Origin: an uncultured bacterium
Lineage (GTDB): Bacteria > Zixibacteria > MSB-5A5 > UBA10806
Direction of reading: 5' to 3'
NCBI GenBank assembly: GCA_965541585.1
Contig: CBEUCH010000012.1
Location: 49,021 to 113,020, forward strand
DNA: 64,000 nucleotides
Position numbers and translations under genes: made by a program
In this document: one piece after another, positions 14,327 through 23,285 of the stretch
Layout of the letters: each line of letters begins with the position of its first letter
Numbering within the stretch: position 1 is the first letter of the stretch
The notes under the pieces: generated by a model
The model's input: only the letters and a program-made list of their open reading frames with translations
What the model was told of the DNA's origin: nothing
Database searches by the model: none

Positions 14327-15385
14327 ATGCCTGAAGGCAGAGACATAGACATACAATCTATTATGATGCCGATACTGGCGTTGGCTGCGGGGACGGCATT
14401 TTTCTATTACGCCAGCCCGATCCTGATACCTATCGTGGTGGCATCGGCTCTGACATATCTTTTATTACCGCTGGTCGATCAATTGAAGCGATTCAAACTG
14501 CCCCATACTTTAGCTGTAGTTATTGTAATGCTTATCGTACTCGCTGTTTTTGTTTTAATAGTGACCTTACTTATCGGGCAGATTGCGGATTTCGCTTCAG
14601 CCTTTCCCGATTATAAGGATAAGGTTGAAATGACCCTGAACAGCTGGAGGACTTCACTGGAGGGCTATCTCGGATACCTTCCGGGGGATCTCGGAAAACC
14701 GGAAGACCTCACACTTGATATCGGGCAGGTTCAGCAGGCCGGCAAATACTTCTTCAAGGGGTTGGGATCACTCACCAGTTTCACATTCGGGTCGCTTCTG
14801 ATGTTTTTCCTAACGCTCTTCATGCTTCTGGATTCGGAGATGTTTCAAAAGAAACTCAAATCCATTTTCGGCAGTGGGCAAACGGAGGCCACCGAGGGGA
14901 TCATGCACGAAATCAGCCGCCAGCTCAAGGGTTTCATACAGGTGAAATTCACAGTTGCCCTGGGGCTGGCGATCGTGGTCACTATCGGGCTTCTCTTGTT
15001 CAGGGTGAAATACGCATATATATGGGGGCCGCTGGTCGGTATCATGAATTTGATTCCGTTTATCGGTTCTATCTTGAGTGCCATACCGCCCATCATAGTG
15101 GCCGGCATTCAGTTTAATTCGGTCTGGTACATGTTCTGGGTGGCGATATTCTTCCTGATCGTCCAGTTTATCGAGAGCAACGTCATCACGCCGCGGCTGA
15201 CATCCGCCTCCGTCGACCTGAATACGCTGGCGGTGCTTTTAGCTGCCATGTACTGGGGCTGGCTCTGGGGATTTATAGGCATCATACTGGCGGTGCCGAT
15301 TACAGCGGCCATGAAGGTCGTCTGCGATCATGTGGAGCCCTTAAAGCCGATAGGCATCATGCTCGGAACCGGGCGAGGAGAGTAG
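14327..15385 (+). CDS. AI-2E family transporter
   Basis: Multi-TM; NLIPFIG, QFIESNVITP, WGFIGIILAVP motifs. Confidence 0.9.
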   Translation: MPEGRDIDIQSIMMPILALAAGTAFFYYASPILIPIVVASALTYLLLPLVDQLKRFKLPHTLAVVIVMLIVLAVFVLIVTLLIGQIADFASAFPDYKDKVEMTLNSWRTSLEGYLGYLPGDLGKPEDLTLDIGQVQQAGKYFFKGLGSLTSFTFGSLLMFFLTLFMLLDSEMFQKKLKSIFGSGQTEATEGIMHEISRQLKGFIQVKFTVALGLAIVVTIGLLLFRVKYAYIWGPLVGIMNLIPFIGSILSAIPPIIVAGIQFNSVWYMFWVAIFFLIVQFIESNVITPRLTSASVDLNTLAVLLAAMYWGWLWGFIGIILAVPITAAMKVVCDHVEPLKPIGIMLGTGRGE

Positions 15386-15412
15386 GCCCAATCATAATAT
15401 TAGAATCATTCC

Positions 15413-15439
15413 GTAGGGGTCAGGTTACCTGACCCCTAC
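15413..15439. repeat. REP-like GTAG palindrome, family A copy 2
   Basis: Identical to 11939-11965. Confidence 0.9.
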
Positions 15440-15551
15440 GATATCCCAAAAATATATTTCTACCGCGATGTCAGCCCCGCCTTTGGCGGGGTTTCCTGAC
15501 ATCATGCATAGACCGTCGGGAAGGGGTTCCCGACGGCGCAACAAAAATATA

Positions 15552-15652
15552 TTGACAGGACCGGCAATATACTCTTCATTTAGATATCCGCTGTAGGTTT
15601 CAAGCGGTGATATCCCACCCCCCGGGAATAGAAAAAAGGCGTAATGCCTTGC
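15552..15652 (+). promoter_or_regulatory. Duplicated promoter-like plus structured-leader module, copy 1 (candidate cis-regulatory RNA or operator)
   Basis: TTGACA-N17-TTCATT, hairpin, 29-nt core identical to 16733-16761, second hairpin AAGGC/GCCTT. Confidence 0.55.
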
Positions 15653-15704
15653 CTATACGAGTATGAGTTGCCGGAATCGAATTTAGAAACGAGAGGTGAA
15701 ACTG

Positions 15705-15932
15705 ATGGCAAACTTTGATGTTTTCGAAGACAAAGACTGCGGTAAGTGGAGAGTGACTCGTGAAGGGGCCGATGATCCCATCGATCTGGCAAAGACCCAA
15801 CGCGATGCCGAGCGGATAGCAAAACGGCTGGCAGCCAACACCGGCGGAGGCGAGGTGCGCATTCATAGCCAGGATGGCAAGGTCCGCAATAGAGAGAAAG
15901 TAGAGCCGGCCAGAGATCCGTCTGCACCATGA
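15705..15932 (+). CDS. DUF2188-family small protein
   Basis: W.V..EGA....TQ.DA...AK......GGEVRIH..DGKVR pattern; GAGG SD before ATG 15705. Confidence 0.75.
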   Translation: MANFDVFEDKDCGKWRVTREGADDPIDLAKTQRDAERIAKRLAANTGGGEVRIHSQDGKVRNREKVEPARDPSAP

Positions 15933-15984
15933 GAAAACAGAGAATAGTTAAAAGGGGATAAGCCGCATTGCCCTTCAGGCAAGG

Positions 15985-16031
15985 GTAGTCGGTCAGGTCA
16001 CGCCCTTACTGACTACGACCTGACCGAACGG
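15985..16031. repeat. REP-like hairpin, family F copy 1
   Basis: TCGGTCAGGTC...GACCTGACCGA; related TCAGGTCACG...ACTACGACCTGAC.GAACGG at 60894-60927. Confidence 0.7.
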
Positions 16032-16054
16032 TAAACTCAAAAAGGAGGATCGAG

Positions 16055-16549
16055 ATGAAGAAACAGCTTTTTCAATTATCCGCCATCTCTCTGGTTTTGA
16101 TGTTGTGCTTTACACTTGGTTGCCAGCAACAAAGCGATGTCATTGATGTCGAGGCTGATACCGCCGCCATTATCGAACTTATGAATAAGTTCACCGAGGC
16201 CGTGAACGACGGAGATCTGGAGCAATGGATTTCCCTGTGGACCGATGACGGTGTACGCATGGCCCCCGGCGCTCCGGCTACAGTTGGCAAAGAAAATATC
16301 AGGGAGGAAGTGAGAGACCGCTTCGAGTCATTCACAGTCGTAGAGACTATAAACACTGAAGAAGTGAAGGTGGCCGGGGATTGGGGTTTTGCTCGTGGCA
16401 CCTACACGTTTATAATGACACCGAAAACGGGAGGTGACTCGATTGAGGGAGTCGGGAAGTATCTCTCTATTCTGCAAAGACAGGCCGACGGCTCCTGGAA
16501 ATTCACCCGGGACTGTTTCAACAGCAACGAACCATCTGAACCTGAATAG
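16055..16549 (+). CDS. NTF2/SnoaL-like (DUF4440) lipoprotein
   Basis: Lipobox TLGC; GKYLSILQRQADGSWK motif; strong SD AAGGAGG. Confidence 0.8.
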   Translation: MKKQLFQLSAISLVLMLCFTLGCQQQSDVIDVEADTAAIIELMNKFTEAVNDGDLEQWISLWTDDGVRMAPGAPATVGKENIREEVRDRFESFTVVETINTEEVKVAGDWGFARGTYTFIMTPKTGGDSIEGVGKYLSILQRQADGSWKFTRDCFNSNEPSEPE

Positions 16550-16565
16550 AAAGGCGATACGCGTT

Positions 16566-16623
16566 CTGGATTCCCGATCAGGTCCTACGGCCCGTAGGGA
16601 TCTGTAGGATCGGGAATGACAAT
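16566..16623. repeat. ATTCCCG...CGGGAATGACA palindrome, family E, with 27-nt insert in the loop
   Basis: Equals 19035-19065 except for TCCTAC...GTAGGA inserted at 16583-16609. Confidence 0.8.
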
Positions 16624-16636
16624 GTAATATAATCCC

Positions 16637-16663
16637 GTAAGGGTCAGGTAACCTGACCCCTAC
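16637..16663. repeat. REP-like palindrome, family A copy 3
   Basis: GTAAGGGTCAGGT-A-ACCTGACCCCTAC. Confidence 0.85.
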
Positions 16664-16680
16664 AATATCCCAAAAATATA

Positions 16681-16781
16681 TTGACAACCCGGCCCACATT
16701 CTTTTCATTGCCATAACCGCCTTACGTTCTGGGCGGTGATATCCCACCCCCCGGGAATAGAGGAGAGGCACGATGCCTTGA
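16681..16781 (+). promoter_or_regulatory. Duplicated promoter-like plus structured-leader module, copy 2
   Basis: TTGACA-N17-TTCATT, ACCGCC/GGCGGT hairpin, identical 29-nt core, AGGCA/TGCCT hairpin. Confidence 0.55.
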
Positions 16782-16853
16782 GTGATAATATTATAATACC
16801 GCTGGGGTGGAGCGGAACGTGAAGCGGCGGAGAAAAGAATTGGATAACAAATT

Positions 16854-18239
16854 ATGAGTTCGCGCATACTGTTGGTTAATTTCGGCGATGTTGAACAGCA
16901 AAGATTGGCCAAGCTTAATCTGGATGTAGATTTGGGGATTTTAAGTGATGCATGGGGCGAACCCATTAATAATAGTTCTGGTAATATTATTTCAAATCAA
17001 ACTGCCAGTTACTATTTCCCGTATTCAGTATATGAATATAAGGTAGTATTTGTCAAACTTACAAAACATCCTCCATTCAGAGATAGATCTGAGGATGAGT
17101 TAAGTCTCATAGATGAGAAACAAATAATCACATGTTTCAGATATTGGCATAAATTAAATGGAATATTAGTGATTTTTATTGATGACGGCAGTCATGTAGA
17201 TTTGAATCTACTTGGTTTCCCATATGCACATTTAGGGTCATTATCGGGAGTTGACAGAACTATCAACTCATATAAGAAAGTAGAAGGTAAAGAACCTCAA
17301 AGAACGTTCAAGGAATTAGTATCTTCTGTAAAAATACCGCCATATAGTCGCATAATTGTGCCTAACACAGAATCGGAATATAATGTATCGAGGCGTTGGA
17401 GAATATTTACTCCTTATGTAAATAATAATCGCGATAAATTGGGTATATACCTTGACTGGGGATTGAGTTTTGAAGCAGCTGAAAAACCTCAATTATTTAT
17501 ACTCCCTGCTTATAAGGACTATGGCCTCGCTATTGAGAAATTTATTAAGTCGCTAGCAAGAATTCACCCGCGCCAATTACCGGAAGTAATCGCTAGCGAT
17601 TGGACAAATAATGACAGTTATTTCCCAAAAGCGGTTAGTGATGTTGAAGCAAAGAAAAAAGATACCTACGCCAAATTCAAAAGTCAGTTAGCCCTTCTTG
17701 AAAAAGAGAAAGAAGAATTGAAGAACAATTACAGTTATATCATTGAACTTTTACTGGCATCTGGGGACGAATTAAAAGAAGCTGTTATAAGGGTCCTCAA
17801 TGAAATATTTAAGCTAAAAGCTATTGACTTAGATGAAAATAAGAAAAGTGATTTTCGCGAAGACATATCTATTGAGGACGAAGAAACTGGTAATATTATG
17901 TTTGCAGAAGTCAAGGGGACGAGGAACCAGAATCCGACTTTCGCCTATATCCTCCAGCTTGAAAAAAACTTGCGGAGGAGAGGCAATAAAGATCTAGTCG
18001 GAGCTCTTATACTTAACTATGATTTAACCAAAGAGCCTCAGTCAAGGCCAGAGGCCTATACCAGTAAAGACGAACAGGAGGCCATAAAGGATATTATTTT
18101 TATAGACACAAGAGTTCTGTTTTATCTCGCTTTAGCGATCATCGATCATGATATGAGAACCAAAGAAGCCAAAGAGATTTTGTTAAAAAAAGGTCGTGTT
18201 GTATTTAATCTTAAGCAATATCTAAAGAATAGACAATAG
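16854..18239 (+). CDS. AT-rich hypothetical protein with coiled coil and C-terminal PD-(D/E)xK nuclease-like domain
   Basis: 461-aa ORF, visibly AT-rich; GDELKEAV...REDISI...FAEVKG...QL pattern. Confidence 0.6.
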   Translation: MSSRILLVNFGDVEQQRLAKLNLDVDLGILSDAWGEPINNSSGNIISNQTASYYFPYSVYEYKVVFVKLTKHPPFRDRSEDELSLIDEKQIITCFRYWHKLNGILVIFIDDGSHVDLNLLGFPYAHLGSLSGVDRTINSYKKVEGKEPQRTFKELVSSVKIPPYSRIIVPNTESEYNVSRRWRIFTPYVNNNRDKLGIYLDWGLSFEAAEKPQLFILPAYKDYGLAIEKFIKSLARIHPRQLPEVIASDWTNNDSYFPKAVSDVEAKKKDTYAKFKSQLALLEKEKEELKNNYSYIIELLLASGDELKEAVIRVLNEIFKLKAIDLDENKKSDFREDISIEDEETGNIMFAEVKGTRNQNPTFAYILQLEKNLRRRGNKDLVGALILNYDLTKEPQSRPEAYTSKDEQEAIKDIIFIDTRVLFYLALAIIDHDMRTKEAKEILLKKGRVVFNLKQYLKNRQ

Positions 18240-18308
18240 CATTGTTTCTTTATTGATATCTTGATTTCCGCGCTTTCTATGCCATATGTGTTCCAGCCTC
18301 ATCCCGAT

Positions 18309-18680
18309 CTATACGCGCTTCGCCTCCTCGAAGAGCTTTATGGTCTCATCCTTCATGAGAAGCCAGATGGTGTAAATCCCCAGCGCCGTCCCGAAGGGGA
18401 AGTTGAGCAGCTCTAAAAACCCGAGTATCAGAACCATTATCCTGGCCCAGGATTTCATATACAGAAGGCCGATACCGCCTATGATCCCGGGCACGGAAAA
18501 CAGAGACAGCATGAGTGCGATGGAGGTGGCGGCGATGGCCGTGAGGGCAATGGCATCGGAATCACCGGAAATAAGCCCGCCGGCGATGATCACCATGAAA
18601 AGAAGCATGGCCACCAGAACCCCGATGACACTAAATACGATATGCAGCCAGGCCAGTATAGTAACGTGTTTTTGCATCAT
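18309..18680 (-). CDS. Small integral membrane protein
   Basis: About four hydrophobic segments; FPFGTALGIYTIW; GGGAG SD. Confidence 0.75.
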   Translation of the reverse strand: MMQKHVTILAWLHIVFSVIGVLVAMLLFMVIIAGGLISGDSDAIALTAIAATSIALMLSLFSVPGIIGGIGLLYMKSWARIMVLILGFLELLNFPFGTALGIYTIWLLMKDETIKLFEEAKRV

Positions 18681-18769
18681 TCACTCCCATAGAATAGATT
18701 CACTACCCTTTTAAGATACGGAATTAAGCCGCAGTGTTTCAAGTATTTTTCGTCCCTCAGCGTCTCGGG

Positions 18770-19065
18770 GTGTGGCAATCCCAAACTGGTTTGGGATTGG
18801 AACTGTTCAGACACCCCCAAACAAGTTTGATGGTGCCACCCGTCGTCCCTTAGGACGCATCTCCGGGTGGCATGCTCTGGTCGAAGACCTGAGCATGTTT
18901 GTTTGGCCATTCTACATGCTTACCCTTCGGGAAAGCATGCCACCCAATGTCTTTTGTAGGTCGGTAATTTATTGCTGACGACCCAGCCGCGGCCATTAAA
19001 ATGGCCGCCTACATTCCCCGCCTCACTCCACCACCTGGATTCCCGATCAGGTCGGGAATGACAAT
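18770..19065. repeat. Dense cluster of palindromic repeats (family C inverted, GGGTGGCATGC doublet, GTAG..CTAC element, family E)
   Basis: 18770-18842 family C; 18865-18945 GGGTGGCATGC...GCATGCCACCC; 18956-19012 GTAGG...CCTAC; 19035-19065 CTGGATTCCCGATCAGGTCGGGAATGACAAT. Confidence 0.85.
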
Positions 19066-19069
19066 AGGG

Positions 19070-22000
19070 CTACCCCACCACCTCCACGCGTTCCGCCACC
19101 ACGGTCAAACCGCTGATCTCGTTCTGCACCGTCCCTGTGATATCGAGTATCGGCTTTCTGAATATCCGCTCGCCCACCCTCTGGTAGACGTTGGGAAACA
19201 GAGTCACCTCGAACATATCGAACTCATCCTCCATGGTCAGGAAAACCATATTCCTGCCGTTGCTGGTCTTGATCCGCTTGCGGTCGGCCACCAGCCCGAC
19301 GATTTTCACCTTCTTGTTCTCCAGCTTTGGCAAATCAACACTCTTTATGTGGCCGTTTAATGATCCCAGTCTCTGTATCGGGTGACAGGTAACCGCCATC
19401 TCCAGTATCTCCGTCTCGGCCTTCAACCGTTGATCAATATCGAAATCGGGCAGGTCGGGGCAAAAGGAAAGCTCCGGCTCCGGTATCGTGAGGTTATCGA
19501 GCATGGGATTGCCGCCCGTCTGTTTCAGCCTTTTTTCGCCGTATATCTTATGCAGCCAGAGAAGCCCGGGCCGGGTCCGGGCTAGGCAATCGAGCGCCCC
19601 GCATTTGATGAGGCTCTCCGCCTCGTCGGTGGACGGTCTGGCCCGCTTTAAAAAATCAAACAGATCCGAAAATCTTTTATTCTTTCGCGCGTCTATTATT
19701 GTTTCGATAGTATTCGTTGATAGATTCTTAACGAATGCCAATCCGATATAAAGATCGTTGCCATCAACAAAGCAAACATCGGACGGACGGTCTATCGTTG
19801 GCGGCTTTAGAGTAGCTCCCCATCGGCGGGCTTCCTCGGCGTAAACCAGGGGACGATAATACCCGGCGAAATTGCTCAGCATAGCGGCCATATACTCTAT
19901 GGGGTGATAGGCTTTCAGGTAGGCCCCGCAATAGGAAAGCACTGCATAGGTAGCGGCGTGTGCCTTGCAGAATCCATACCCGGCGAATTGCGCGATCATC
20001 TCGAATACCTCGGTGGCAATCTTTTTACGAACGCCGCGCCGCGCTGATTGTTTAATAAAATTCTGCCTCATCACTGCGAAATCGCGCTGCGCCCGATCTT
20101 TCGTTATGGCTCGCCTCAATAGATCCGCCTGCCCGGGCGTGAATCCCGCCATGGCCTCGGCTACCTTGAGAACCTGTTCCTGGTAGATGACATTGCCTAA
20201 TGTCTCCTTCAAGACAGGTTCCAGCAGCGGATGGGGATACTCCACCGGCAACCTCCCGAAAAGCCTCTCTAAGAATACCTTCTTCATTCCCGATTCGGAG
20301 GCCCCCGGCCTGATCAGCGATAATGCCAGCGTGATATCGTTTATGCATTTCGGTTTCATAGCGATCAGGAGCGCCCGCAACCCCGGCGACTCGATCTGGA
20401 ATACGCCCACCGTTTTGCCTTTTTGCAAAAGATCGATAGCTTTCGGATCGCGATCGGGAATCGTTGCCGGCCTGCTGCCGGTTTTAGTCTCGATCAGATC
20501 CTTTGCCTCCTCGATAGTGGAGAGGCCGCGCTGCCCCAGAAGGTCGATCTTTACCAGGCCGAGATCATCGATCGAATACATATCATATTGGGTGATGGCA
20601 ATCCCCCCATACGGGCCTAACGGCTTGGCCGACATCTGAAGCGGCGTCCAGTCGAGCAGCTTCCCGGGTGCGATAACGATACCGCCGGCATGTATCCCGA
20701 GGTGGCGCGGGTAACCCTCTATCTTCTGCGCCATCTCGATTATCGACCTGTACGGTTCCTTTTCAACGGGCAGATGATGGCACTCGGGGTTGGTTCGCAT
20801 ATATTTAGCCAGGTTATCGACCTGGCCTCCCCAGGGGAGCCGCTTGGTGAAATCGGATATCTCATCGCCGGACAGCCCGAATGCCTTCGCCACCTCCCGG
20901 ATCGCACCCCTGAGAGCGAACCTGTTGGTGGTGGCGATCATTGCTACTCTGTCACGGCCGTATTTTTCATAGACAAATTCCAATACGTCATCGCGACTTT
21001 TCCAGCAGAGATCGAGATCGATATCCGGCGGATCGGTACGGCCCTCGTTGAGGAATCGTTGGAAATACAGGTCGTGCTCGATGGGGCAGACCTCGGTTAT
21101 GCCGAGACAGTATGATACAATCGATGATGCCGCCGAGCCGCGTCCGACACAGGGGATCTTGTTTCGTTTGCAGAAATCGATAATATCGCGGACGATTAAG
21201 AAATAATCTATAAATCCACTGCGCTCTATTACGTTGAGTTCGTATTCCAGCCGCGAGATCGCCTCGCCGGTTAATTTTCGATACCGTTCCTGAAGTCCGG
21301 CGAAGGCCAGTTCATAGAGGAGGCGGCCGTTAGTTTTGTCGGTTTCATTGTCGTAGGTTGGGAAATTCAACCGTCCCACGGGCAGTTCGACATTGCATTT
21401 CTCGGCGATCTCCAGGGTTGCCGCGATAGATTCCGGGAATTCGGAGAATAGTCTTGCGGAATCCTTTTTCCCGCGGAAATAAGCTTGTGGGTTTTCGATT
21501 TTATCATCGCCTAATTGATCTACCGGCACGATCTCACCAATCGCCCGCAAGACACGATGAGTCGGATAATCCTCCTGATCGACGAATGCTACCGGATTGG
21601 CCGCTACCGGTGTTACTCGAAACTTCTCCGCTTCCCGCATCGTCTTTTGCAAACGTATGCGGCCTCGCAGATCGCCGAAATTAACCAGCCCGAGATAGAG
21701 ATCATCCGAGAATATCTCCTTTAATATGTCGAGACAGCCCGTTTCAAAGGCTACTGCTACCAGCCCGCCATAATGAAGTGCTATATCCTCGATGGACGGT
21801 AACCTTTCATGCAGCTTCTCGATTGTCGACAGGCGGCAGAGATTCCCATATCCCCTGAAATCTCTGGTGAGAAACATCAGCCTTCCCGCCTCGGTCTCCA
21901 TTTCCAGACCGATGACCGGTTTTATATTGTATTCCCGTGCTTTGCAGTAGAATTCGATCATCCCGTAAAGCCCTCCGAGATCCGCTATCCCGACCGCTCC

Positions 22001-22105
22001 CATTCCCCGGCGGGCGGCTTGCTCCAGGAGGGCCTCAATCGTACATACGCCGTGCAGAAACGAATAACTACTGCGACAACGAAGGTGTACGAAGTTCGTA
22101 GCCAT
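19070..22105 (-). CDS. dnaE2: DNA polymerase III alpha subunit, error-prone DnaE2/ImuC type
   Basis: PHP domain, GRGSAAS, PPDIDLD, HAGG, KIDLLG, GVFQIESP, YGFCKAHA, OB fold; about 1010 aa, no long C-terminal extension, paired with a Y-family polymerase. Confidence 0.88.
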   Translation of the reverse strand: MATNFVHLRCRSSYSFLHGVCTIEALLEQAARRGMGAVGIADLGGLYGMIEFYCKAREYNIKPVIGLEMETEAGRLMFLTRDFRGYGNLCRLSTIEKLHERLPSIEDIALHYGGLVAVAFETGCLDILKEIFSDDLYLGLVNFGDLRGRIRLQKTMREAEKFRVTPVAANPVAFVDQEDYPTHRVLRAIGEIVPVDQLGDDKIENPQAYFRGKKDSARLFSEFPESIAATLEIAEKCNVELPVGRLNFPTYDNETDKTNGRLLYELAFAGLQERYRKLTGEAISRLEYELNVIERSGFIDYFLIVRDIIDFCKRNKIPCVGRGSAASSIVSYCLGITEVCPIEHDLYFQRFLNEGRTDPPDIDLDLCWKSRDDVLEFVYEKYGRDRVAMIATTNRFALRGAIREVAKAFGLSGDEISDFTKRLPWGGQVDNLAKYMRTNPECHHLPVEKEPYRSIIEMAQKIEGYPRHLGIHAGGIVIAPGKLLDWTPLQMSAKPLGPYGGIAITQYDMYSIDDLGLVKIDLLGQRGLSTIEEAKDLIETKTGSRPATIPDRDPKAIDLLQKGKTVGVFQIESPGLRALLIAMKPKCINDITLALSLIRPGASESGMKKVFLERLFGRLPVEYPHPLLEPVLKETLGNVIYQEQVLKVAEAMAGFTPGQADLLRRAITKDRAQRDFAVMRQNFIKQSARRGVRKKIATEVFEMIAQFAGYGFCKAHAATYAVLSYCGAYLKAYHPIEYMAAMLSNFAGYYRPLVYAEEARRWGATLKPPTIDRPSDVCFVDGNDLYIGLAFVKNLSTNTIETIIDARKNKRFSDLFDFLKRARPSTDEAESLIKCGALDCLARTRPGLLWLHKIYGEKRLKQTGGNPMLDNLTIPEPELSFCPDLPDFDIDQRLKAETEILEMAVTCHPIQRLGSLNGHIKSVDLPKLENKKVKIVGLVADRKRIKTSNGRNMVFLTMEDEFDMFEVTLFPNVYQRVGERIFRKPILDITGTVQNEISGLTVVAERVEVVG

Positions 22106-23285
22106 CGACTACCTCACGGAAATTCTCGCCCAACGGCATCGTTCGCCCGGTGAATATCGCATGGTATCCCAGGCCGGCTCGTACCTTATCAAGACTGCGC
22201 GCCAGGTCGAACGGTCTTTCATCCTCAAAGAACTTTATCTGACGAAACGCGGGGGAGAGGTTCATAGCGGTTATCCCCAGGTGCCGGACGCCCACCTTGC
22301 GGCTGTAGATCCTGTTGAAAAGTGCGGTTATGTAAGCGTAGATTTCACCCTCGGAGTCCGATGGAGAACGCATCGTTCCGGTATCGTCCGACGATGAATA
22401 GTCCACATAACGAAGTTTGACGGCGACCCTGCCTGCCACCAGCTCGCGCTCTCGAAGTTTCTGGCAGACGCGTTCCAGCAGGTAGTACAGCGTCCCCTTC
22501 AGGAAGCCCCTGTCCACCGAATCGGCATTGAAGGTCGTCTCGCGGCTGATGGTTTTTGGCCGGGAGATCGGTTTTACCGAGCGGTTATCTATACCGTGGG
22601 CATAATCGTGCCACTCCGAGCCACGAATCCCGAAAAGCTCTACCAGGACCGGACGCGGTACATTGCAAAGGTCCCCGGCCGTATGGACGCCGAGCTCTGC
22701 CAGGAGCCTTTCGGTTTTATATCCCACGTTCGGCAGTTCTCTCACCGGCATCGACTGCAGCATGGTATGCGCTCGCCCGCTGCTTATCACGGTCAGGCCG
22801 TTCGGCTTTCTCATATTGCAGCCGATCTTAGCGAACATCTTGGAAATTGATATGCCGATCGAACAGCGCAGTTTCAATCTGTCCCATATCTTGTATTTCA
22901 AAGACGCCCCGAGCTCCCGGATCGAAGCGAACCTGTTTCCACAGCCGGTCAGGTCGAGATAGGCCTCGTCCATGGAGACCGGTTCAACCAGCGGCGTGTA
23001 TTCATCGAATATTTCCTGAACCCTTCTCCAGTAATCGAGATAGATCTTTATATCGCCCTTAACGAACACCGCCCGCGGTAAGCGGCGGTACGCCTCCGAC
23101 AACGATAATCCAAAGCTAATGCCCAGACGCCTGGCCTCGTAGGAGGCGCAGATGACGATCCCGCGGGTGCCGGGCTCTCCGCCCACTATCACTGGCTTGC
23201 CGGTCAAATCCGGGTTCAGCGCCTGCTCCACCGATGCCAGGAAGGCGTTCATATCCACCAGCGCTATTATTCTCTTCTTATCCAA
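22068..23285 (-). CDS. dinB: Y-family DNA polymerase IV
   Basis: DMNAFLASVE, SYEAR, SMDEAYLD, KPNG, little-finger domain; TTG start. Confidence 0.9.
   Translation of the reverse strand: MDKKRIIALVDMNAFLASVEQALNPDLTGKPVIVGGEPGTRGIVICASYEARRLGISFGLSLSEAYRRLPRAVFVKGDIKIYLDYWRRVQEIFDEYTPLVEPVSMDEAYLDLTGCGNRFASIRELGASLKYKIWDRLKLRCSIGISISKMFAKIGCNMRKPNGLTVISSGRAHTMLQSMPVRELPNVGYKTERLLAELGVHTAGDLCNVPRPVLVELFGIRGSEWHDYAHGIDNRSVKPISRPKTISRETTFNADSVDRGFLKGTLYYLLERVCQKLRERELVAGRVAVKLRYVDYSSSDDTGTMRSPSDSEGEIYAYITALFNRIYSRKVGVRHLGITAMNLSPAFRQIKFFEDERPFDLARSLDKVRAGLGYHAIFTGRTMPLGENFREVVDGYELRTPSLSQ

Follow-up and report, generated by a model that had tools for sequence, protein, structure and literature searches.

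A recurrent promoter-linked core with a predicted C-loop hairpin precedes unrelated genes in one family of Zixibacteria

A 64,000-nucleotide (nt) stretch of DNA from an uncultured bacterium of the Zixibacteria (contig CBEUCH010000012.1, positions 49,021 to 113,020; hereafter the window) carries two copies of a short unit, a promoter-like part followed by a putative leader, which stand in front of a gene for a DUF2188 protein and a gene for an unrelated protein of 461 amino acids (aa). Within the unit lies a 17-nt, C-rich core that belongs to a family of sites in this genome and its relatives, and we tentatively read this core as a tag, shared by the genes behind it, for expression or regulation. 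Coordinates are positions in the window; G000 is the genome that holds the window, and G001 and G002 are its sister species. The locus comprises the following features, among them palindromes of the repetitive extragenic palindromic (REP) kind and one open reading frame (ORF) between the copies:

15413–15439, + strand: REP-A palindrome on the side of copy 1, a general dispersed repeat and a flank outside the unit
15459–15542, + strand: 84-nt insert in copy 1 with two REP-like hairpins, from reading and alignment
15543–15580, + strand: promoter-like part of copy 1, with an A-tract, TTGACA (15552–15557), a 17-nt spacer and TTCATT (15575–15580)
15588–15607, + strand: hairpin 1 of copy 1, CCGCT-N10-AGCGG, beginning at about the predicted +1
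15613–15628, + strand: core of copy 1 (predicted C-loop hairpin), TCCC-ACCCCCC-GGGAA
15636–15650, + strand: hairpin 2 of copy 1, AAGGCG-TAA-TGCCTT
15705–15932, + strand: gene for a 75-aa DUF2188 protein behind copy 1 (PF09954, E 5e-15)
16055–16549, + strand: DUF4440/SnoaL-like ORF between the copies, at this place in G000 only
16637–16663, + strand: REP-A palindrome on the side of copy 2, a flank
16672–16709, + strand: promoter-like part of copy 2, with an A-tract, TTGACA (16681–16686), a 17-nt spacer and TTCATT (16704–16709)
16717–16736, + strand: hairpin 1 of copy 2, CCGCC-N10-GGCGG
16742–16757, + strand: core of copy 2, TCCC-ACCCCCC-GGGAA
16766–16794, + strand: hairpin 2 of copy 2 (AGGCA-CGA-TGCCT, 16766–16778) and an A/T-rich tail, GAGTGATAATATTAT
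16854–18239, + strand: gene for a 461-aa protein behind copy 2, with no Pfam and no PADLOC match

An earlier sequence-only reading of this DNA had described the two copies as sharing REP-A, ATATCCCAAAAATATATT, a TTGACA-N17-TTCATT promoter and two hairpins, and by direct reading and alignment we found all of these in both copies. The identical 29-mer to which it had pointed (15604–15632 = 16733–16761) has exactly two matches, with 0 in 100 shuffles, and a search of the genome at up to 3 mismatches gave no third copy. As had been stated, similarity between the copies ends after ...TGCCTTG, and in the alignment the mean column identity outside the 29-mer is 73%, a concerted pattern beside the identity of the 29-mer itself. 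The tail GAGTGATAATATTAT of copy 2 is common to copy 2 of G001 and to two loci found in a metagenome scan (L129 and L107). Copy 1 is longer than copy 2 because the 84-nt REP-like insert sits between two direct repeats of the 11-nt string AAAAATATATT (15448–15458 and 15543–15553). A REP-like doublet of this kind also precedes promoters in G001 and G002; in G001, the first AAAAATATATT repeat still bears TTGACAACCC, as if the doublet had landed within an older promoter. The REP palindrome had been counted as part of the module, and this part of the description did not survive: REP-A occupies 17 dispersed loci in the genome, and the promoter follows it only in the two window copies. Because it is dispersed and not tied to promoters, we took it as flank. 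By the marks of REP/RAYT-type repeats (a dispersed palindrome with a GTAG head, independent of promoters), REP-A is such a repeat and the 17-nt core is not. On the minus strand, a T run follows hairpin 2 of copy 1 (15636–15650), which there scores as an intrinsic terminator; no minus-strand gene enters this terminator-like site, and copy 2 has no T run.

A loose search of the genome brought out a recurring core within the 29-mer, TTCCC-W-CCCCCC-GGGAA, consisting of 5-nt inverted arms around a C-rich spacer. The exact core, TCCCW(N)CCCCCCGGGA, has 12 copies in the genome; a profile search yielded 13 matches at E<0.01, and variants of the core stand at C17:39629, C27:21020 and, weakly, C6:135845. 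In total, about 15 transcription units are headed by the core, and a simple duplication with only two copies, which the earlier reading had named as the outcome that would undo it, was not borne out. All 12 exact cores have a TTGACA box 33–55 nt upstream, in one orientation, against a chance level of 2.3% for such a box within 95 nt of random places. Over six genomes, the box was found at 27 of 28 distinct sites, the exception being copy 2 of G001, whose promoter was lost by deletion at a short shared string. At every core site a same-strand ORF of at least 60 aa begins 4–391 nt downstream. The surroundings divide the sites into three subtypes, namely a window type with a GC hairpin before the core, a long-tail type with a shared tail, GGGAATGTTTTTGAAATACCGGCC..., that contains a second, covarying hairpin, and bare cores; hairpin 1 is optional across the family. 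The loops ACCCCCC, UCCCCCC and AUCCCCCC account for all canonical sites, with one such hairpin per unit. One site is a mosaic, with the left flank of L005 being that of L022 and its right flank that of L010 and L028.

The family is narrow in its range. The exact core was found in 6 of 41 relatives, all of one family and from genera g1, g2 and g6, and in 0 of 27 genomes of other families; a reversed-pattern control matched once. Across the phylum, 8 of 201 genomes contain the exact core, 5 within the family and 3 outside it with single matches that lack the promoter. A scan of one genome per prokaryote species with a promoter-anchored pattern gave 16 loci, of which 8 are of the Zixibacteria type and 8 are singletons in unrelated, mostly high-GC genomes, and the metagenome scan gave 31 loci, including a near-copy of window copy 2 (L129), two copy-2-like loci (L107 and L116) and an orthologue of the C18 unit (L117). 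Because promoter context is lacking or the DNA is high in GC, we took the single matches outside the family (the 3 phylum genomes, 8 of the 16 species-scan loci and several metagenome loci) as chance, with the exception of an acidobacteria-like element described below. No 16S gene was found in the assembly.

The genes behind the units vary. The window, G001 and G002 share the gene order AI-2E transporter, unit 1, DUF2188, unit 2, and the gene that follows unit 2 is the 461-aa protein in the window, a Cas4-like PD-(D/E)XK nuclease in G001 and a 582-aa RNase-H-superfamily protein in G002. L129 and L107 place two further genes behind a copy-2 type leader, and the five proteins, from five genomes or contigs, are mutually unrelated (blastp E>1). 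The nearest Atlas clusters of the 461-aa protein are hypothetical proteins without a name. The SnoaL-type ORF is missing from the same place in G001 and G002. In a 6249-nt contig of run X2, whose contigs we compared at ≥85% likeness, DUF2188 is followed by 692 other letters that replace the SnoaL-like ORF; the match to the window then resumes at 16747, within the core, and continues through the 461-aa gene. The DUF2188 gene occurs only in three genomes of the genus (3 of 24 in the order), and its protein matches the PADLOC candidate PDC-S16 (E 8e-12). Because of the Cas4-like nuclease and this match to a phage-defense candidate, the locus looks like a small variable defense-type island whose head is constant. 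In G001, the unit 2 gene (L067:943–1581) matches an Argonaute-associated Cas4-like nuclease.

Elsewhere, the units stand before nucleases (PDDEXK_1, RNase_H_2, HSDR_N_2), a DUF7379 hydrolase with a subtilase, a matrixin/FG-GAP protein, BNR proteins, an MBL-LTD protein, a periplasmic binding protein, an Lgt paralogue, TauE, a sheath-tube (contractile) cluster and, at C24, a C-terminal fragment of an integrase; 11 of 22 first ORFs have no Pfam family. All four downstream genes that were tested proved accessory. The LivK-type gene of C18 is absent from both sister species and the Lgt-type gene of C17 occurs in G000 alone (1 of 14 at E 1e-30), and we call these two accessory because the sister genomes lack them. 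As had been stated, the two genes behind the window copies are unrelated; the genes of the other units are likewise unrelated and mostly accessory, and one of them is a tRNA gene. A scan of 71 neighboring proteins revealed no recurrent regulator or mobile-element gene beside the units. Two long-tail units lie 3.3 kb apart on one strand, directly behind a tRNA gene (G000:C6:91480–94880; L138), and behind the first of them come a 263-aa ORF and a 730-aa matrixin/FG-GAP protein whose internal repeats are near-identical.

The unit lies on the strand of its gene, directly behind the promoter, and of the functions proposed from the sequence alone, that of a leader fits best. Where no extra hairpin intervenes (13 sites), the distance from TTGACA to TCCC is 31–36 nt; several sites have good −10 boxes at 17–18 nt (TATAAA, TATATA, TATAAT), and in this genome TTGACA is usually followed at 16–17 nt by a −10 of the form TAWWWT. 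From the 31–36 nt spacing and a −10 at 17–18 nt, the predicted position of the hairpin in the transcript is about +1 to +6. At 12 sites with a distance of 48–78 nt, the gap is filled by one or two GC-rich hairpins of unrelated sequence that begin at the predicted +1; in the window, these hairpins begin at 15588 and 16717. The window copies themselves have a poor −10, TTCATT, which a consensus promoter scan rejects because it lacks the A at position 2. The scan proposed instead CTGACC-N18-TATATT (15429–15458 and 16653–16682), the −35 of which is an arm of REP-A. On either promoter reading, the core would be cotranscribed with the gene, provided that the promoter fires.

We also considered whether the core varies as a folded RNA would. 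The loop is 4 (in G002), 7, 8 or 9 nt long. At C17 both arms are changed with pairing kept (TACCC...GGGTA), the arms at G002:C100 (TTCCC...GGGGA) include a G-U pair, and hairpins 1 and 2 likewise vary through G-U pairs. These arm variants, with loop lengths of 4–9 nt, favor a folded strand over a DNA operator of fixed spacing. In eight close leaders, 97% of the cells pair and one pair alters on both sides, and 42 of 500 shuffles were as good. The compensatory change that had been noted in hairpin 1 (CCGCT/AGCGG versus CCGCC/GGCGG) is there to be seen, but it amounts to a single pair and the covariation is no better than in shuffles. Folding of the first 69 nt of the two window leaders gave z −1.0 and −3.2. 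At L117, the LivK-type orthologue of the C18 unit, core and leader are kept and the promoter spacer has diverged. The two copies in G002 share a core that is 3 nt shorter and are more alike to each other than to their orthologues, so tandem copies appear to evolve in concert.

One unit heads the genome's sole tRNA-Pro(CGG) gene (G000:C27:20959–21124; L146:3440–3605); of 43 tRNAs, it alone has a leader that contains the core. This unit has a good TTGACA-N-TATAAT promoter, a GC hairpin and, 12 nt before the gene, the core variant TTTTCCC-GAT-CCCCCC-GGGA. Among orthologous leaders, the core is kept in G002 (CUCCCC), and replaced at the same place in G003 by the pairing-preserving UAUCC-UUCUUG-GGAUA; G001 lacks it, as do most of the 23 genomes of the order in which the gene occurs. 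Since it is kept, replaced or absent among relatives, the core is labile and dispensable for tRNA-Pro(CGG).

Another setting of the core came from acidobacteria-like contigs, in which the 17-mer lies inside an element of about 72 nt that has sharp boundaries and follows a TTGACA box:

L103:744–818, + strand: acidobacteria-like 72-nt element, found also at L101, L104, L109, L119, L120, L122–L124 and L132

It consists of a closing stem, GGAGGCAAC/GUUGCCUCC, a UUCCCUCCCCCCGGGAA hairpin as in the core, and a second hairpin; the element is near-invariant with diverged flanks, folds at −36.6 kcal/mol (z −3.1) and has no Rfam match. We regard it as a candidate free small RNA with a 6C-like loop, a class discussed below.

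Our preferred reading, to which we assign a probability of roughly 40%, is that a σ70-type promoter together with a 5′-proximal C-loop RNA hairpin makes up a shared tag for expression or regulation. Each copy would consist of a σ70-type promoter and then a short transcribed leader, in which the 17-nt core would fold into a hairpin of 4–5 bp whose loop is rich in C, located at the RNA's 5′ end or one hairpin behind it. As a common cis-acting tag, the core would stabilize the transcripts, be recognized by one trans-acting partner, or both, and the partner might be a protein or else a G-rich RNA, as with the C-rich-loop small RNAs. The unit may have been retained while the genes behind it turned over because it is useful and self-contained. 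This reading builds on what is demonstrated, namely the family, its position and orientation, its taxonomic range, the unrelated variable genes and the pattern of variation, and we also count in its favor that the 17-mer lies inside the stably folding acidobacteria-like element. A bolder version, which we hold to be speculative and rather unlikely, has the C-loop hairpin mark the members of a lineage-specific regulon of newly acquired genes. A strong promoter and the 17-nt RNA tag, which a single dedicated factor would read, would together work as an expression adaptor; the foreign or variable genes kept or swapped behind the tag would include defense-type nucleases, a contractile injection system and secreted hydrolases, and the same tag in an acidobacterial free small RNA would make it a cross-phylum module of the 6C kind.

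Several points weigh against the reading of the core as an RNA tag. The start of transcription and the fold of the RNA are predictions, as is any effect on stability or regulation. Both window copies have a poor −10, and a second promoter reading exists for them. The core helix is invariant in the eight close leaders, where covariation does not go beyond that of shuffles, and the full window leaders fold no better than shuffles (z −0.2 and −2.0). Near-invariance of 15 nt fits a protein-bound DNA site equally well. A G-rich partner in cis is not enriched downstream (mean longest match 4.44 versus 4.30 in shuffled sequence; matches of at least 6 nt at 8 of 39 sites versus 6.8 expected, P 0.37). 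The lability of the core before tRNA-Pro(CGG) belongs here as well. With respect to the G-rich partner, pairing of the loop in cis with an anti-Shine–Dalgarno-type or other G-rich stretch was rejected as a candidate: it is not enriched, and the 7-nt GGGGTGG behind window copy 2 is lost in the near-copy L129. A role in restriction or methylation through the CCCGGG within the core was also rejected, as this site is not avoided in the genome (1335 observed versus 1277 expected).

Comparison with known systems places the unit among several of them. Stem-loops at the 5′ end stabilize the Escherichia coli ompA leader and the Bacillus subtilis ermC and aprE leaders. Like these, the hairpin of our unit would lie only a few nt from the predicted 5′ end, directly follow a strong −35 box and not depend on the gene behind it; unlike these, which are defined by position and stability, it has 15 nt that are near-invariant over three genera, loop included, and this near-invariance points to specific recognition. 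C-rich-loop RNAs are also known, RNAIII of Staphylococcus aureus among them. The 6C small RNA (sRNA) of Actinobacteria, a precedent for a functional C-rich loop, has such loops, and they pair with G-rich regions of ribosome-binding sites without a chaperone (PMC6486639). Its likeness to our unit lies in the stem-loop with at least six conserved C's (PMC6486639). Whereas 6C is a free, trans-acting sRNA, the unit's hairpin lies within mRNA leaders and one tRNA leader and has no end of its own, and the unit has neither an Rfam match, the 6C RNA model included, nor a G-rich partner enriched in cis.

Other systems resemble the unit in its arrangement. Correia repeat-enclosed elements of Neisseria and similar miniature inverted-repeat transposable elements bring promoters and RNA hairpins to neighboring genes. 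Our unit is likewise short, dispersed and joined to unrelated genes, to which it gives a promoter and a structured 5′ leader; unlike those elements, it has no terminal inverted repeats or target-site duplications, and its copies, about 15, stand in one orientation before genes. It shares with the integron platform (Pc and attI) a constant promoter-bearing head with variable, unrelated genes behind it, but lacks a fixed junction base of the kind that the GTT of an integron core site provides; ordinary long operons, too, are found behind units. The ops/JUMPstart leader elements are read by RfaH-type NusG paralogues, and ops forms a small hairpin. Like them, the unit is a short strand-specific leader element of acquired or accessory operons; unlike the situation there, each of the 12 family genomes (of 14) with any PF02357 match has one NusG gene. 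RfaH/LoaP-type antitermination was accordingly rejected, the NusG paralogue being absent with one PF02357 match per genome in 12 family genomes.

Two rivals merit the most attention, and we consider each of them unlikely, at much the same level. In one, the core is a DNA operator: a repressor or roadblock protein would bind the TTCCC/GGGAA arms and read the C/G tract just downstream of the start, silencing mostly acquired genes. The near-invariance of 15 nt over three genera, with flanks diverged, is what such a site would look like, and the core lies at +1 to +20, or at +25 to +45, of the predicted promoters. The inverted arms around N and C6 also resemble the RcnR-type site, TACT-G6-N-AGTA, and the core precedes a tRNA gene, where a translational role would be senseless. 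Against this stand the spacer between the arms, which varies (4, 7, 8 or 9 nt), and arm variants that preserve pairing, G-U included; for this reason the operator, already proposed from the sequence alone, is kept here only as a weakened rival. Moreover, a gene of the CsoR/RcnR family (PF02583) was found in 0 of 14 family genomes, with controls positive in 6 of 14, and among the 71 neighboring proteins no regulator gene recurs by the units. The other of the two would have the unit be a copied promoter and leader, spread by duplication and gene conversion and with no function beyond that of a promoter; the core would be a small REP-like palindrome prone to persist in DNA close to promoters. The genome is rich in REP-type hairpins, some of them inserted within these promoters, the extra hairpins vary between sites, and covariation is weak; the concerted evolution of tandem copies, the mosaic flanks at L005, and the gain and loss of the core at the tRNA-Pro(CGG) leader among close relatives all agree with copying. 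What such a palindrome does not explain is the single orientation to promoter and gene within a narrow window of distances, when REP-A is not tied to promoters, or the exactness of the core where the adjacent spacer has diverged (L117 versus C18), or the small number of copies, just 13–15, all behind TTGACA.

The remaining rivals are considerably weaker. A site for site-specific recombination, with 5-bp inverted arms and an asymmetric spacer of 7–8 bp of the lox/FRT/dif or attI kind, could place genes behind promoters, and we consider this quite improbable. Its architecture fits the core site of a tyrosine recombinase, five different genes follow the copy-2 type leader, the similarity to the run X2 contig resumes inside the core, and the C24 unit precedes the integrase fragment. 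Of the suggestion, already made from the sequence, of an insertion site that supplies expression to captured genes, the supply of expression fits the comparative pattern of five unrelated genes and of accessory genes behind the units; an insertion site in the strict sense is not supported: similarity ends about 12, 27 and 37 nt behind the core in different pairs, and by eye no attC-like site was seen at 15933–16054, 16550–16636 or 18240–19070. Furthermore, units head long ordinary operons and a tRNA, and no mobile-element genes recur among the 71 neighboring proteins. A true attC-like site (GGCTAAC ... GTTATGT) does exist 27 kb before the window, at G000:C12:21570–21640, in an island next to a tRNA gene; this site, at about 21.6 kb of C12, is not a core site and is unrelated to the core family.

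The earlier reading had also proposed a small RNA; as a free transcript of about 70 nt comprising hairpin 1, the C-loop hairpin and hairpin 2, we regard it as very improbable. Three successive hairpins do follow the promoter, and the acidobacterial element with the same hairpin looks stand-alone. A terminator scan, however, found no + strand terminator in 15350–16900, there is no T run after hairpin 2, the leader runs on into the gene at every site, and in many relatives a Shine–Dalgarno (SD) sequence and start codon follow within 25 nt; because no + strand terminator follows hairpin 2, this part of the sequence-only reading is unlikely. Least probable of all in our view is a translated core, in which a short leader peptide that stalls at polyproline (CCW-CCC-CCC-GGG = PPPG; for the window copies, read in the GUG frame, SHPPG) would sense proline or elongation factor P. 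It is in keeping with a leader peptide that W falls on a third codon position, that the G002 variant differs by exactly 3 nt, that a GUG-started ORF, MISHPPGI..., spans the core in four leaders, and that the sole tRNA with the core is tRNA-Pro. Yet only 4, 5 and 7 of 37 sites, depending on the frame, have an in-frame start codon that lies behind the predicted start of transcription and before the core, no SD precedes the GUG, the AT variant adds one base, and the GUG is lost in copy 2 of G001 and in both copies of G002. As a general reading, the polyproline leader peptide is largely refuted, there being no consistent start codon.

Should the core prove to be a functional tag, it would mark out a small and sharply bounded regulon in a phylum never brought into culture, and it would show how such a genome supplies unrelated genes of recent acquisition with one signal for expression; the 17-nt core is short, invariant and readily testable. 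If the core is merely a palindrome that hitch-hikes behind copied promoters, the finding is an ordinary one. In kind, the unit is a cis leader element joined to a promoter, and what is unusual about it is the invariant C-loop core, the limit to three genera and the link to variable genes. We found no description of the element in the literature on Zixibacteria integrons, RNA motifs or promoters, and made no wider literature search. That it had not been recognized as a known RNA agrees with Rfam 15, in which no family matched the unit (15300–16950, E up to 10); seven related loci gave no matches at E up to 1. The sole Rfam matches in 15300–16950 are two weak and unrelated ones, DUF2815 RNA and pRNA. 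The DUF2815 RNA match (15982–16057, + strand) scores 25.3 bits versus a gathering score of 41.2 (E 0.048) and covers a stretch just before the SnoaL/DUF4440 ORF with a hairpin, then UAAA...AAAAAGGAGG, then the start codon.

Two further observations concern the surroundings of the locus and the genome at large. On the minus strand at 19070–23285, genes for a 1011-aa polymerase of the DnaE2 type and a 405-aa, ImuB-like polymerase of the Y family, which together are an error-prone 'mutasome' pair, converge on the variable locus. At G000:C1:230876–230936, with matches in G001, G002, G008, G011 and G013, we observed two further, strongly conserved transcripts behind TTGACA promoters, with the sequences ...GGGTCAAATGGCCCCGATGGGA and ...GACGCGGGGTGGAGTCCCGCC...GGCGGGA; these are probably known housekeeping RNAs.

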